A program made the translations under genes and the position numbers. Under the pieces are notes generated by a model, which saw only the letters and a program-made list of their open reading frames with translations, searched no databases and was not told the origin of the DNA. This document shows positions 10,549-15,284 of a stretch of DNA of 64,000 bases, piece after piece; the stretch's first letter is position 1; each line of letters starts with the position of its first letter. The stretch covers positions 28,064 through 92,063 of the forward strand of contig JASEEV010000001.1 of assembly GCA_030019435.1 (NCBI GenBank), in the 5' to 3' direction. This DNA is from Methanocellales archaeon. GTDB taxonomy: Archaea > Halobacteriota > UBA148.

Positions 10549-10676
10549 CTCTTGAGATAAAAACCTGATGACCAGCTGGTGCTTCCATTGCTTGGGACTA
10601 GATTCTCCTTGTTAGTAGCGGATATTTTGGCAATGCATATTTAAGAAAGATGAGAGTAATATAGTGATGATGACCT

Positions 10677-10967
10677 GTGAAGAGTGATTTAGACCTAAAA
10701 ACCTATGAAAGAACCATCTATGAAAGAATCGATTTGTTTATTCAACACTTTCATGCTGTTTCTGATAAACTAGAAGATGAGGAAGACGTTAAATCGAGTA
10801 TTATCGACAAGTTTATAGACATTTTGGGTTGGGATTTAGGCGATCCTTTAGAGGTCAAAAAAGAGCAAAAAATCGAGGGCAGAAAAAAGGCAGATTATGC
10901 CCTCAAAGTCGATGGAAAACCAAAATTTAAAATACAAAGTCTATTGGGTAAATCATGGAACGGGTGA
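10677..10967 (+). pseudogene. Truncated fragment of a restriction enzyme/methylase N-terminal (HsdR_N-like) domain
   Basis: The 96-aa ORF has the Mrr-cat/HsdR_N-like core (ILGWDLGDP...EGRKKADYALKVDGKPKF). It ends abruptly and runs into a 190-bp AT-rich tract. Confidence 0.4.
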
Positions 10968-11157
10968 AATCTTAAAAACAAAATTTGAAATTATCCGATA
11001 AGAAATAGATAGTAAAATCATGACTTAGTCTTCTATTCATCAAGTTTAAATTTTGAGTCTATTGTTCAACTGAAATTCATAAATCTGTCATTTGGCAACA
11101 GGCCCTTATTTGATTAAATTAATCTACTTTCCGAACTACTGGGGTATTTAGAACCCT

Positions 11158-12339
11158 TTATGGGTATAATTCGTCTGGTATTAACATTTTGAAGTAACCT
11201 TTGCCCTTCTCAAGTGCACGATATTTGCATATAGCTGCGAGAGTAGAGTATCTTGGAGGAGGTAATTTATCGGACATTTTTATAACTCTGGCACCTACAA
11301 GTCCAACTCCTCTAAAAGTCAAGTCCCCCGGAGTAAGATTATATGCCCGTGGATTTGAAACTGTGTAAAGCTCATCCAAAATATACTCTTTTCTATAACG
11401 TTTAATAGTCCATTGCCAAGTTAACAGAACACCGCTTATATCTCGATTATAGTCCTGAGTGAATTCCCTTTTAACAATAACCGGAAACATTCTATCCGGA
11501 GCCTGATACCTCGTAAAATCCATAGAGATCAAAGCAGGAGAATCTTCTGGCAGCTGTTTTTTAGCCTTCTTAAATGTATTACGTACACGTTTAACTTCGC
11601 TGTAATCTACGGGAGCAGAAACATACACGATTCTATTATCACTATACTCAAAGCCTTCGGCTTGAATGAACACAGGAGATATCCTAATCGTGGGGACTCC
11701 ATTGTGGCGTAGAGGTTTACCATCAAAACGAAGAATGCCCTCTTTTACAATCTCAACAATTTGTGAGATATGCTCTTCAGTCAAAGCGCCAGGCAAGTCT
11801 ATCTTAATGTCACAAGATTTCTTAGCCTGGTCCAGCTCATCAAAAACACGCTCCTCTAAAACCTTAGCAAGCTTACCGAACGCTCTCTGTTTCTCTGACG
11901 CCCTAAATTTCTTACATTCAATGTATATCCATTTATTTCTGATTTTTACCCGCATATCTGGAGCTCTCTTTCCAGAGGATGGATAGAGTTCAATGCATTT
12001 ATTTTTTGAGTTCCTTCTAAAAAGAGCGGCTATGTGCGCCTCGTAAACAGCCGCCTCGTACTTTTTGCGATCTTTTAAATTATTAATTAGTTCATCGAAG
12101 CCAATAACTCCTTGTAGAACTTCGAGGTCTAGCCCTAACGTGGTGAGTTGCATTATGTTCGGCATTCCTTTCTGCTTCCATTTTGCACCGATTGGATGGG
12201 CCGACTTGAAATCTTTCGAAGCTTCTGCTTGTAGCCATTCTTCTCCAAGAATATCTTTGAGCAGATTAAAAATATGGATACACTGTTTCCTACTGAATTG
12301 ACTACCATTTATGGATTCGTTGTCTTCAATCCACACCAA
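11158..12339 (-). CDS. Hypothetical protein with predicted PD-(D/E)xK nuclease core
   Basis: The 393-aa ORF is AT-richer than its neighbours. Central segment YEAAVYEAH...CIELYP...PDMRVKIRNKWIYIECKK fits the E...PD...(D/E)xK arrangement. N- and C-terminal domains unrecognised. Confidence 0.45.
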   Translation of the reverse strand: MVWIEDNESINGSQFSRKQCIHIFNLLKDILGEEWLQAEASKDFKSAHPIGAKWKQKGMPNIMQLTTLGLDLEVLQGVIGFDELINNLKDRKKYEAAVYEAHIAALFRRNSKNKCIELYPSSGKRAPDMRVKIRNKWIYIECKKFRASEKQRAFGKLAKVLEERVFDELDQAKKSCDIKIDLPGALTEEHISQIVEIVKEGILRFDGKPLRHNGVPTIRISPVFIQAEGFEYSDNRIVYVSAPVDYSEVKRVRNTFKKAKKQLPEDSPALISMDFTRYQAPDRMFPVIVKREFTQDYNRDISGVLLTWQWTIKRYRKEYILDELYTVSNPRAYNLTPGDLTFRGVGLVGARVIKMSDKLPPPRYSTLAAICKYRALEKGKGYFKMLIPDELYP

Positions 12340-12487
12340 TTTTGCATCTCCTTATAGCTAAAATTGCATATAACTACCTATATGCGAACCTCCTCATAAA
12401 AAGACTCTTACTAAATTTAAAGCTAAACTTGTTTACTACCCAATCATCGACTTGGTTAGAAGAATTTGACCCTCGGAAGTACTGAAG

Positions 12488-12507
12488 CACATCAAATCTC
12501 ATCTGGT
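12488..12507 (+). repeat. Copy 1 of 20-bp palindromic repeat (CACAYCARATCTMATCTGGT)
   Basis: cacatcaaatctcatctggt, followed by gaatagcatgg (extended similarity to copy 3). Lies in the divergent intergenic region. Confidence 0.6.
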
Positions 12508-12556
12508 GAATAGCATGGGAATAAAGCTTTAAGCTTTTGAGACAAATTGTTTTTAG

Positions 12557-12775
12557 GTGCCAGAAATGAGCAGCGTAAGTAAGACGTTTGATTGGTATAC
12601 TCGACATCCAAAAGAACTTAGGGGACATGCAGGAAAACACGTCGCAATAGTAGACGAAGAGATCGCCAGCGTCGCCAACTCCGCCATAGAAGCCTATGAG
12701 AAAGCCAAGAAAAAGTATCCGAAAAAGATACCCCTTCTAACATACGTTCCAAAGGGCGAAACACTGGTCCTATGA
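12557..12775 (+). CDS. Small protein (72 aa), upstream partner of the aspartic protease
   Basis: 72-aa ORF with a conserved-looking core HAGKHVAIVDEEI. Its stop overlaps the start of the next gene (ATGA), indicating translational coupling. Confidence 0.5.
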   Translation: MPEMSSVSKTFDWYTRHPKELRGHAGKHVAIVDEEIASVANSAIEAYEKAKKKYPKKIPLLTYVPKGETLVL

Positions 12776-13182: not shown

Positions 13183-13246
13183 TTGAATTGGTTGAGGGAG
13201 ATCATAAGCGTAAAGATTACTAGAATGCCAACTTCAATAACCCAAT

Positions 13247-13266
13247 CACACCAAATCTCATCTGGT
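13247..13266 (+). repeat. Copy 2 of 20-bp palindromic repeat
   Basis: cacaccaaatctcatctggt between the convergent protease and vapC genes. Confidence 0.6.
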
Positions 13267-13290
13267 TATGGTGGAGCGAAAAGGGGAACA

Positions 13291-13713
13291 TCAAAACTCT
13301 GGCAACCTCTTGATTTTATCAACGTTTTCAAAGCTACGATCAAATGAATAGATCTCTTTTATTCCCTCCCTCCTCATGATCTGTATGGCAAGAGAATCGT
13401 TCGGATCCATCTTCGTCTCATCCATGAGCTCTATCGCTCCCAGATAATCGTTTTTGGTGACGTCCACGATCTTGATGTTGTCCGATGAGTACAGTCCGAT
13501 CAATAGCGTGGCAAGCTCATCCAGTGGCAATGCTCGTTTTAGTATATTTGAAACCTCAGACAGATGAACGACGGCTGTTATCACCGTCTCTCCTTCATTT
13601 ATCCTCCTCACAATTTCCTTTGATTTCTCCTTCATCGCCTTTTGCTTTGGACTCAGGTCATGCACTGGCTTATAATAGGCGTAGATGAAGATGTTTGCAT
13701 CTAAGAACCTCAA
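13291..13713 (-). CDS. vapC: PIN-domain toxin
   Basis: MRFLDANIFIY N-terminus (first acidic residue) and SFDRSF C-terminal motif; 140 aa. Confidence 0.8.
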   Translation of the reverse strand: MRFLDANIFIYAYYKPVHDLSPKQKAMKEKSKEIVRRINEGETVITAVVHLSEVSNILKRALPLDELATLLIGLYSSDNIKIVDVTKNDYLGAIELMDETKMDPNDSLAIQIMRREGIKEIYSFDRSFENVDKIKRLPEF

Positions 13714-13964
13714 ACCTCTCCCTCATAGAACTCTTTTTCAAATTCGTCCCAATCTCCTATGTTCATGCCTAGATCGGCTTTATCAAAGAATTTCGTCAGG
13801 TCCACCTTCTTCTTCGGAATCATCTTGAGATATCCTTTTCTCTTTATTATGAACACCTCATTGGTCCCTTTCAACTCTTCTTTTCTCCAGTCAGACGGCA
13901 ACACGAATCTCCCTTGCTCATCAACTTTCTTCGCTTCAACGCCCTCGACCAAATCTATCACCAT
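13710..13964 (-). CDS. vapB: AbrB/SpoVT-fold antitoxin
   Basis: GRFVLPSDWRKE swapped-hairpin motif; 84 aa; stop overlaps the vapC start by 4 nt. Confidence 0.7.
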   Translation of the reverse strand: MVIDLVEGVEAKKVDEQGRFVLPSDWRKEELKGTNEVFIIKRKGYLKMIPKKKVDLTKFFDKADLGMNIGDWDEFEKEFYEGEV

Positions 13965-14107
13965 AGTAAAGTAAATGTGCCATATATTAATAGTTTATGG
14001 TCAAAATAATATAATCTGGCATCACGTCATATACTTCGCATTGATCCTGACATAATCGTATGTGAGATCGCAGCATCATCGGTCGTTTAGTCACATCGCA
14101 GATCAAA

Positions 14108-14127
14108 CACACCAGATCTAATCTGGT
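14108..14127 (+). repeat. Copy 3 of 20-bp palindromic repeat, overlapping the stop codon of the SepCysS gene
   Basis: cacaccagatctaatctggt (perfect 8-bp inverted arms CACCAGAT/ATCTGGTG), followed by gaatagcaatg. Confidence 0.6.
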
Positions 14128-15284
14128 GAATAGCAATGCCTAAGCATATTTTTGATGATGTCATCAAACGCATCGATTACAACCTTCAGCTCGCTCCTGG
14201 ACAAACCAAACGTGCTCAACTTGAAAGATTTGGTCAACCCAGGCTTGATTCCATGAATATTTCTATCTTTCAGCTCTTTGTATAAGAAGTAGCGTCCATC
14301 CTTTGCTCTCTGTGATATCTCATAAAGGTTTGGCGCCTCGAAAAACATCAGGTCATGCTTGTGCGGTCTATCCCCTAGCTGTTTCAGCCCCAGATCTTCC
14401 AGTTGGGCAGAGAACCACTGCGCCTTTCGAACCTCCTCTTCCCAGTGCTTCAAGCGTTCCACCACAGAAGGAAAAGATGCCATCAGAGTCATGATCGTCG
14501 CGCCCCTAGCGGTGCATCCAAGCAATTCCACCTCTTTAGCACGAAAGAACTTGGATTTTTCAAAGATTTTGTCCTTGTGCTCATCAGTTACACCGAGCAC
14601 GCCTACTGGGCCGGAAGATGCCATCGACTTGTGACCGCTGCCTACGATGAAGTCTGCGCCAACTTTTCTCGCACTAATGGGCATTCGTCCTACTGCATAG
14701 GCGCCATTTAGCAAAAACGGAATGTCGTATTCATGGCAGATGCTTGCAACTCTTTTCGCATCAACTATGTTGCCATAGTTGCCGTCCGGATATGTGAGCA
14801 ATGCCAAAGTTGGCAGTTTGCCTATCTCCTTTTCGATCTCCTCGATGATCGTTGCATAACCCTCTGGGTCGACCTTATAGTCTGGGTAGCCGGAATTTGG
14901 AACGGTCTTAATTTTTAATCCAGCTCTCTCTGCAGCGACAAACGATGTATAGTGCGCATTTCCATCAAGCACGATCGAATCGTTCCTACTTGCTAGCGCG
15001 TGCATGATCGCGAACTTCGCTTCTCTAGCACCGTTGGTCACGCGTGCATGATCTATGCCCAAGAATTCGGGCAACGCATCATGAATAAAATCATGGATTG
15101 GCGGCGTCCTGATTTCATCTAAGGTACCAGGGCAGAAATCGCAGACGGAGTAGCCGTCTCCCCATTGTATGAGTGCAGCTCTTGCCTCTGGGGTGAGTTT
15201 TCCTCCTGTCTGGAGAGGATCGATGTTGATCATATGCAACGTTTCCCTATTTAGGAATTTTTCAAGGTCCATGCTCAACAACAC
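14118..15284 (-). CDS. Sep-tRNA:Cys-tRNA synthase (PLP-dependent)
   Basis: 388 aa. Fold-type I PLP enzyme with GSGHKSM lysine motif and overall resemblance to archaeal SepCysS. Could alternatively be another class V aminotransferase-like enzyme. Confidence 0.6.

Follow-up and report, generated by a model that had tools for sequence, protein, structure and literature searches.

A two-cassette toxin–antitoxin-type array bounded by a conserved 23-nt core at the 3′ flank of SepCysS in a Methanocellales archaeon

In the pdif modules of Acinetobacter plasmids, and in integrative mobile elements exploiting Xer (IMEX), core sites of approximately 28 nucleotides (nt) flank small modules that often carry toxin–antitoxin (TA) genes, and a housekeeping recombinase of the host acts on them in trans; the pdif modules are flanked by inverted sites. 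Tandem elements that are flanked by att sites and contain no integrase are known from bacteria (cis-mobilizable, or CIME-type, elements) and as tandem integrated mobile genetic elements in archaea (PMC8371274), and the clusters of attC sites lacking integron integrases (CALINs; PMC9668308) hold small mobile cassettes rich in TA and restriction functions. The locus described here lies in a 64,000-nt stretch of DNA (‘the window’) from a Methanocellales archaeon (GenBank assembly GCA_030019435.1, contig JASEEV010000001.1, positions 28,064 to 92,063), between a gene with DUF434 and DUF5616 domains and the gene for SepCysS. An original prediction, made from the sequence alone, had described the segment as a mobile or defense islet consisting of four modules in a row. 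It is a strain-variable accessory islet made up of two unrelated pieces: piece A (12485–14135), which carries two TA-type cassettes, and piece B (10549–12484), which is AT-rich foreign DNA without the repeat that delimits those cassettes. The most specific part of the islet is narrower than the unit first proposed, and comprises the two-cassette array of piece A, exchanged at a 23-nt core.

The open reading frame (ORF) listing and Pfam matches placed all four modules where they had been predicted. The features of the array and of the gene adjoining it are as follows.

12485–12515, + strand: repeat R1 (core 12485–12507, then GAATAGCA), at the distal end of the cassette array
12508–13243, + strand: cassette 2 (promoter-like region, DUF5678 gene and protease gene), from ORFs, Pfam and a fold match
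12566–12775, + strand: DUF5678 gene (ORF from the GTG at 12557), Pfam E=1e-13
12772–13182, + strand: predicted retropepsin-like aspartic protease of 136 amino acids (aa), from sub-threshold profile matches and AlphaFold2 (AF2)/Foldseek
13244–13274, + strand: repeat R2 (core 13244–13266), between the convergent 3′ ends of the protease gene and vapC
13267–14104, − strand: cassette 1 (upstream region of ∼140 nt, vapB and vapC), from ORFs and Pfam
13291–13713, − strand: vapC, PIN domain, Pfam E=1.9e-16
13710–13964, − strand: vapB, AbrB/MazE-like, weak Pfam match (E=0.02)
14105–14135, + strand: repeat R3 (core 14105–14127, then GAATAGCA), the SepCysS-proximal copy, just 3′ of SepCysS
14118–15284, − strand: SepCysS, from Pfam, the conserved gene whose 3′ flank holds the insertion site

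The three repeat copies, all on the + strand, are the only matches in the 64 kb, against a chance expectation of 0.03, and none of 100 shuffled sequences reached the observed count. Alignment of eight distinct copies (from the window and from three related sequences designated L029, L006 and L054) defined an invariant 23-nt core, AANCACAYCARATCYMATCKGRT, with the consensus AA-N-CACA-Y-CA-R-ATC-Y-M-ATC-K-G-R-T and with unrelated flanks. The L006 copy Rb matches R2 at 25 of 27 positions, compared with an identity of only 76.6% for the SepCysS DNA of the same two sequences, and the core is better conserved than neighbouring coding DNA. Immediately to its right R1 and R3 share the sequence listed above; R3 then runs into SepCysS and R1 into the DUF5678 cassette, a join that is seen in the window, L029 and L054. 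The repeat had been described as a 20-bp palindrome present in three co-oriented copies that separate the modules. The number and orientation of the copies hold, but the conserved unit is the 23-nt core, and only R3 is palindromic, forming a stable hairpin with an 8-bp stem (z=−3.4). Similarly, the repeats do separate the two TA cassettes, but none lies between the two genes of piece B.

We compared the locus with related sequences, all of which are metagenome-assembled genomes (MAGs) or metagenome contigs. The nearest GTDB representatives, Methanocellaceae/Methanocellales MAGs designated L002–L005 (SepCysS ∼83% identical), keep the same gene order as the window through Dph2-MTase-Csl4-RpoL-EndoDU-SepCysS, continue after SepCysS with genes for a DHH protein, IMPDH, an ArsR-like regulator and Cdc48, and contain none of the islet genes and no core; L003 and L004 have a degenerate core-like 16-mer (11/16) right after the SepCysS stop codon. 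These MAGs lack the islet, yet their downstream synteny also differs from that of the window, where the SepCysS block (14.1–26.9 kb) and the IMPDH block (38.6–49.2 kb) are ∼24 kb apart and in opposite relative orientation. Since the genes downstream of SepCysS in L002–L005 sit at 38.6–49 kb in the window, the 3′ end of SepCysS is also a synteny breakpoint. The 339-aa DHH gene of these MAGs was not found in the window. An inversion of the two blocks mediated by the repeat was considered and rejected, because the other junction (∼38531–38614) has no repeat copy. Directly after the SepCysS stop of L005 (∼11143–11190) there are two copies of AATTGAT(T)CACCTTCTGCC, ∼24 nt apart, and L002 has one copy.

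The more distant L006 (SepCysS protein 80% identical to that of the window) has the order SepCysS, core, a PIN gene with a VAPB_antitox gene, core, a non-coding flank of 125 nt, 580 nt of unrelated sequence, a ∼70-nt element and the tRNA that is also present in the window. Its single cassette occupies the same place as the array in the window and is non-orthologous: the antitoxin belongs to a different family, the VapC has no real similarity to the window VapC, and similarity between the window and L006 cassettes beyond the core was not significant (35 of 300 shuffles). The sequences on the far side are shared, in that the ∼70-nt element equals window positions 10622–10690 and the 125-nt flank is 83.5% identical, above the 76.6% of SepCysS DNA. 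That flank has no Rfam match; it is probably the ancestral flank of the insertion site and/or the promoter region of the gene that follows it, and a small RNA is another possibility.

A much closer relative, L029 (NCBI GCA_030019155.1), together with the Logan contig L031, shows 41 differences over window positions 12483–18241 (5.76 kb; 99.3% identity) and carries the vapBC cassette. Homology of both to the window stops at the left edge of R1 (12483), beyond which they are unrelated to it; where the window has the 125-nt flank and orf393, the nuclease gene of piece B, they have 230 nt of non-coding sequence and the terminal part of a TIGR02391/ymh-like gene. A protein search with that gene fragment returned only itself. 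A metagenome-wide scan for the core yielded one extra contig, L054, which is 95% identical to window positions 12485–13267, from the first base of R1 to the last base of the R2 core, and which outside the cassette has the C-terminus of a type IIG restriction–modification (R-M) protein on one side and other sequence on the opposite side. For the window strain, the Logan contig (L001/L030) stops at R2 (13276) and at the left conserved element (10612); contigs from two runs of one study break at these same two places, a behavior that fits population-level variation. These comparisons show that strains and lineages differ, with the breaks in homology falling at the core, and that one cassette occurs in more than one context. 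The reading of the segment as a mobile or variable islet is borne out by them: gene order varies among relatives, and the repeat flanks variable content.

The end of SepCysS that adjoins the array has an irregular tail in the window. An A/T homopolymer run at 14149–14153 is 1 nt shorter than in L029 and in all relatives, which shifts the last SepCysS codons (relatives end in IIKKYA followed by the stop) and places the stop inside R3, in the hairpin loop; the native stop would be at 14140–14142. L029, at 99.3% identity, has the longer run and a normal stop. The tail represents either a real frameshift or an assembly error, and a recombination breakpoint inside SepCysS is ruled out, since the 1-nt difference in the DNA alignment explains it.

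We consider it reasonably probable that the array was produced by sequential site-specific integration or exchange, at the core, of TA cassettes that contain no integrase, with a recombinase acting from elsewhere. The native 3′ flank of SepCysS would carry the 23-nt site, and small circularizable modules, each a complete two-gene TA-type operon with its own upstream region, would carry a copy of the core and be inserted successively by conservative recombination inside it, so that each cassette would be bracketed by co-oriented copies. From an empty site of the form X-core-AATAGCA-SepCysS, entry of a circular DUF5678/protease cassette would create the junction CCCAAT-core-AATAGCATGGG, and entry of the vapBC cassette at the SepCysS-proximal copy would then create the junction GATCAAA-core-ATGGTGG. 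This three-step order yields exactly the observed order and flanks of the window, and L006 fits a one-cassette version of it. The recombinase would have to act in trans, because the cassettes encode none, and would most likely be a tyrosine recombinase/integrase or XerA-like enzyme supplied from elsewhere in the genome or by a transient element. Addiction would then maintain the inserted TA pairs, which may also provide defense of the abortive-infection type, a role suggested by the gene families only. Within this scheme we infer that the recombination is site-specific rather than homologous and passes through a circular intermediate, and likewise the class of the recombinase and the toxicity and defense functions.

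Several points weigh against site-specific exchange. No recombinase or integrase gene was noticed in the 64-kb window (with ORFs inspected by eye and Pfam run on a subset), and neither an excised circle nor a clean empty site in a near-identical strain was observed. A 23-nt stretch of identity might also allow exchange by homologous or microhomology-mediated recombination. R1 and R2 show little palindromic symmetry and do not fold; that the core consists of two imperfectly inverted arms flanking a centre of ∼7 nt, the ordinary geometry of a recombinase core site, is our interpretation. This particular core is carried by one lineage only (window, L029, L054 and L006). Related copies of the DUF5678–protease pair in five other contexts described below (L055, L057, L060, L063 and L068) have no convincing flanking repeats, and repeat-bounded packaging is therefore not universal for this pair. 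Finally, GC content at third codon positions (GC3) of the TA cassettes is 0.45–0.55, resembling that of core genes (0.44–0.57), and because it is host-like the cassettes are not recent imports from a compositionally distant donor; they look resident in the gene pool of the lineage.

The alternative that survives best, which is possible but in our view doubtful, requires no dedicated recombinase: the repeats would be short conserved sequences, for instance a terminator-like hairpin copied along with its neighbours, and general homologous or microhomology recombination would swap the DNA between them. The absence of a noticed recombinase agrees with this explanation, as do the position of the R3 hairpin right at the end of SepCysS and followed by TGTTT, and the retention of a degenerate core without a cassette in L003 and L004; strains that are 99% identical could moreover exchange DNA through flanking homology on the SepCysS side. 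What it accounts for less readily is a core that is far better conserved than surrounding DNA across lineages, and whose distal copies terminate nothing consistently (one is upstream of one operon, and another downstream of two convergent ones). The cassette in L054 is delimited by the core on both sides, with unrelated DNA outside, so that its exchange would need two crossovers in 23-nt patches, and a further contig (L066, below) displays the same architecture on a repeat of tRNA-3′-end type.

It is very improbable that the array is of the integron (CALIN) type, with the repeats serving as attC sites on which an IntI encoded elsewhere would act in their folded single-stranded form. Sites of the attC kind are ∼55–140 nt long, compared with 23–31 nt for the repeats described here, and a folded-DNA site is unlikely because R1 and R2 fold no better than shuffled sequences on either strand (z about +1). 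The array does share with CALINs its layout, the small size of its variable cassettes, their TA and restriction functions, a possible independence from an adjacent integrase, and a content that differs between strains with boundaries at recombination sites (L006, L029 and L054); among archaeal integrons, TA and restriction genes are the commonest annotated cassettes, and most are CALINs (PMC9668308). However, the conserved R′/R″ boxes of integron sites are missing, GTTRRRY is found at only 2 of the 8 core copies, the cassettes are self-promoted operons of two genes, each with an upstream region of its own and lying in either orientation, and no intI was noticed in the window by the same inspection of ORFs and Pfam analysis of a subset. 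On grounds of length, folding, R boxes and the bidirectional two-gene cassettes we rejected an attC array.

We regard as similarly improbable a regulatory role for the repeats, as operators for the antitoxins or for another DNA-binding protein, in which case the coincidence with breakpoints would be incidental. AbrB-type antitoxins bind palindromes, and R1 is ∼50 nt upstream of the DUF5678 start codon, but the placement of the copies is inconsistent (R2 is between two 3′ ends, and R3 is ∼140 nt from vapB), in L006 the core borders a cassette whose antitoxin is of a different family, and three independent comparisons (L006, L029 and L054) break exactly at the core. Least probable of all is an assembly artefact in which metagenome assemblers joined unrelated DNA at a short repeat, so that the contigs with different contexts would be chimeric: the sequences do all come from MAGs or metagenome contigs, some of which end at repeats, but the repeat is shorter than the usual final assembly k-mers, the same L029 junction is present in both the NCBI MAG and the Logan assembly, and L054 and L006 are not chimeras of the same reads because they are diverged (95% and ∼77% nucleotide identity).

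The original claim that such an islet had not been described as a unit is fair for archaea within the searches made, but close conceptual analogues exist in CALINs, in tandem att-flanked elements and in pdif modules. As in the tandem att-flanked elements, each unit lies between co-oriented direct repeats, one of which adjoins the 3′ end of a conserved gene, three repeats serve two units, no integrase is found inside the units, and content varies between close strains; L054 (12485–13267 only) provides an att-to-att element in a different context. The units here differ in being only 0.76–0.86 kb, with nothing but one TA-type operon each, and in having been inserted at the 3′ flank of a protein-coding gene, SepCysS, instead of at a tRNA. 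With Xer-dependent modules the array shares short core sites that flank small TA modules. In contrast to those, all copies here are direct, and the best symmetry is ∼9-7-9 rather than 11-6-11, the geometry of the 28-nt dif site (PMC2958812). A dif-like site was rejected on this misfit of geometry and orientation and because the core, by reading, does not resemble the dif consensus, in a comparison with known dif sites that did not include one from this lineage. Two further candidates were set aside. A miniature inverted-repeat transposable element (MITE) or insertion sequence (IS)-type transposon is contradicted by ends that are direct, not inverted, copies of 23–31 nt and by the lack of a transposase. 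For a viral attP, exact matches to the core were found in seven IMG/VR contigs, but all of these are in one conserved phage gene family, and we regard them as a single chance match multiplied by relatedness.

The proteins encoded by the array also agree with the original assignments. The PIN gene vapC overlaps the small AbrB/MazE-like gene that precedes it by 4 nt, the acidic quartet D5, E53, D106 and D124 is visible in its translation, and the pair has the organization that defines type II VapBC systems, a PIN toxin gene preceded by an overlapping small antitoxin-like gene. Membership in these families suggests toxicity and its neutralization. The genes themselves are ordinary; the repeat-bounded packaging is what sets them apart from other VapBC pairs.

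The second cassette had been described as a translationally coupled pair of a small protein and a retropepsin-like protease, and its two genes indeed overlap by 4 nt. The protease scores below curated thresholds (best Pfam match 21.5 bits versus a cut-off of 28.2; TIGR03698, 21.9 versus 57.35). Its residues D44, G46 and D48 (DSGAD) and L111, G113 and R114 (LLGR) are invariant in 19 homologues, and in Foldseek the AF2 model (predicted local distance difference test score, pLDDT, of 94) matches 5c9f, a retropepsin-like protease from Rickettsia (E=1e-6), followed by HIV-1 protease. Both the catalytic motifs and the predicted fold are thus those of a retropepsin-like (clan AA) aspartic protease. 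Known prokaryotic proteases of this kind (Rickettsia APRc, PDB 5c9f; TIGR03698, clan AA) share that predicted fold and the invariant D-S/T-G-A and LLGR motifs, and differ in that the protease described here is always translationally coupled to DUF5678, with which it acts like a mobile two-gene module.

Homologues of the protease are 52–69% identical to it (one is 38% identical), and in every case a DUF5678 gene comes before the protease gene and overlaps it by 4 nt. The pair occurs in six further contexts (L055/L056, L057–L059, L060, L063–L065, L066/L067 and L068/L069), flanked by core genes or embedded in groups of other TA pairs, which brings the total to seven unrelated contexts. Its tight two-gene organization and its scattered, TA-rich contexts suggest that it is TA-like, and it appears to behave as a mobile module. 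We found no publication on the function of DUF5678, a 2009 survey of TA systems makes no mention of aspartic proteases, and a plasmid collection contained no matches for the protease or for orf393.

In one of these contexts, L066, a DUF5714 gene is followed by a repeat, the DUF5678–protease pair, a second repeat, a MazE-PIN pair, a third repeat and a PIN-MazE pair. The repeat, ACCTAWCCCCCGCACCA, is present in three co-oriented copies (0.03 expected) that separate the DUF5678–protease and MazE-PIN cassettes (1151–3142). Its third copy forms the 3′-terminal part of a tRNA-like acceptor/T-arm minihelix of 50 nt (3093–3142), where no complete tRNA was found. Integrases classically target tRNA 3′ ends. 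L066 thus appears to be an independent parallel, with the same two cassette types and the same architecture on a repeat of tRNA-3′-end type. Taken together with it, the array raises the tentative idea, which we advance with considerable reserve, of an undescribed archaeal cassette-exchange system in which a recombinase acting in trans would insert, stack and swap sub-kilobase, integrase-less TA/defense operons with a core of ∼23 nt at a fixed site, the 3′ flank of SepCysS. L066 would be a sister version with a core resembling a tRNA 3′ end, and the whole would be an analogue of integrons that works on double-stranded core sites.

Piece B lies between the array and the gene at the left end of the islet. 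Its features, and two of those to its left, are as follows.

8985–9084, − strand: tRNA-Gly(CCC) with an intron of ∼29 nt, from Rfam (60.5 bits), the anticodon and intron being read from the sequence
9892–10548, − strand: DUF434+DUF5616 gene, from Pfam
10603–10690, no strand: conserved non-coding element of ∼70–90 nt, common to the window and L006, the left boundary of the variable segment
10677–10967, + strand: truncated N-terminal remnant of a restriction-type endonuclease, 96 aa, from weak HSDR_N, PHROG and type IIG matches; 35.4% GC
10968–11157, no strand: AT-rich tract of 190 nt; 28.4% GC
11158–12339, − strand: orf393, an intact gene for a putative PD-(D/E)xK nuclease of 393 aa, from residue conservation; 39.9% GC
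12361–12484, no strand: conserved non-coding flank of ∼125 nt adjoining R1, also in L006 (11955–12079)

The decayed HsdR_N-like fragment of the original prediction corresponds to the 96-aa ORF (HSDR_N, E=0.017; weak match to the type IIG family REase_MTase_IIG), which adjoins the AT-rich tract. Its match to the PHROG ‘endonuclease’ family phrog_4225 (E=1e-8) covers only positions 4–80 of 357, and the ORF is therefore a truncated N-terminal remnant. The product of orf393 (NCBI hypothetical protein QMC77_00285) had been predicted to contain a PD-(D/E)xK core and no other recognizable domain, and this description proved accurate. A word-index search returned only the protein itself, and it has no Pfam, PADLOC, NCBIfam or PDB sequence match; an exhaustive phmmer search gave 191 representatives. 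Across 42 homologues D128 and E141 do not vary and K143 is retained in at least 90% (PD...ExK); E248, R251 and N329 are likewise invariant. Conservation of these residues points to a PD-(D/E)xK nuclease of an uncharacterized family of ∼400 aa with no Pfam model. It was considered and rejected as the recombinase or nuclease of the array: it is missing beside the L006 and L054 arrays and from the assembled part of L029, and since it is not found beside the L006 or L054 arrays it is not linked to cassette movement.

Composition had been expected to mark the whole islet as foreign. That expectation holds for its left half (10549–12484), which looks recently foreign: compared with 46.5% GC for the whole window, both of its genes are AT-rich, with a GC3 of 0.34 in the endonuclease remnant and 0.36 in orf393. 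It does not extend to the TA cassettes, with their core-like GC3. A codon adaptation index (CAI) referenced to core genes gave no discrimination. Piece B probably represents a replacement event in a second variable slot, between the two conserved non-coding elements.

The intron-containing tRNA to which the original prediction had drawn attention, 1.46 kb from the islet, is present as described (ARAGORN made no call at 8985–9084; an Rfam scan of 8800–14300 found this tRNA and nothing else). A role for it in the islet finds no support, and we rejected it as the attachment site, given that no tRNA fragments are duplicated in the window. A radical-SAM gene and the DUF434/DUF5616 gene (9113–10548) lie between the tRNA and the islet and are missing from the homologous interval of L006, in which the tRNA region is ∼74 nt from the conserved 70-nt element. 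The description of the DUF434 gene as ‘core’ is doubtful on account of this absence, and the two genes may themselves be an insertion or deletion polymorphism. Exact-protein look-ups for SepCysS, VapC and the DUF434 protein gave no match. Elsewhere in L006 (13081–13305) two copies of the tRNA 3′ end (27 nt, with 93% identity), separated by 198 nt, enclose two tandem 72-nt units, an arrangement that resembles an att-type duplication on the far side of this tRNA.

Further variable features are located at a distance from the islet. A hydrophobic ORF of 128 aa lies between the methyltransferase and Dph2 genes (17296–17682, − strand) and is also found in L029 (125 aa); L002–L005 leave no space for it, with 5 nt separating the two genes. 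A PEP synthase/PPDK-type gene of 1176 aa (20312–23839, − strand) is interrupted by a LAGLIDADG-containing intein (Pfam Intein_splicing and LAGLIDADG_3; approximately aa 430–805), and its orthologues in L002 and L005 are ∼760 aa and have no intein. Two other loci are possibly small accessory insertions: a 35%-GC ORF without a Pfam match among core genes (30531–31094, + strand), and two overlapping ORFs of 241 and 196 aa, also without Pfam matches, the first of which has by eye a GSRDIDI nucleotidyltransferase-like motif (33532–34777, − strand).

TA and defense genes are the most mobile genes in archaeal genomes, and the movement of single two-gene modules is largely unexplained. At this locus the unit of movement can be read directly, as one operon with one 23-nt site, and strains from the same study that are 99.3% identical differ exactly at the core. 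The analysis also flags two uncharacterized modules, the TA-like DUF5678/retropepsin-like pair and the ∼400-aa family of putative PD-(D/E)xK nucleases. If a recombinase were tied to the core, it would provide a tractable mechanism for the shuffling of TA and defense genes in methanogen-related archaea, as well as a pattern with which to search for similar arrays.

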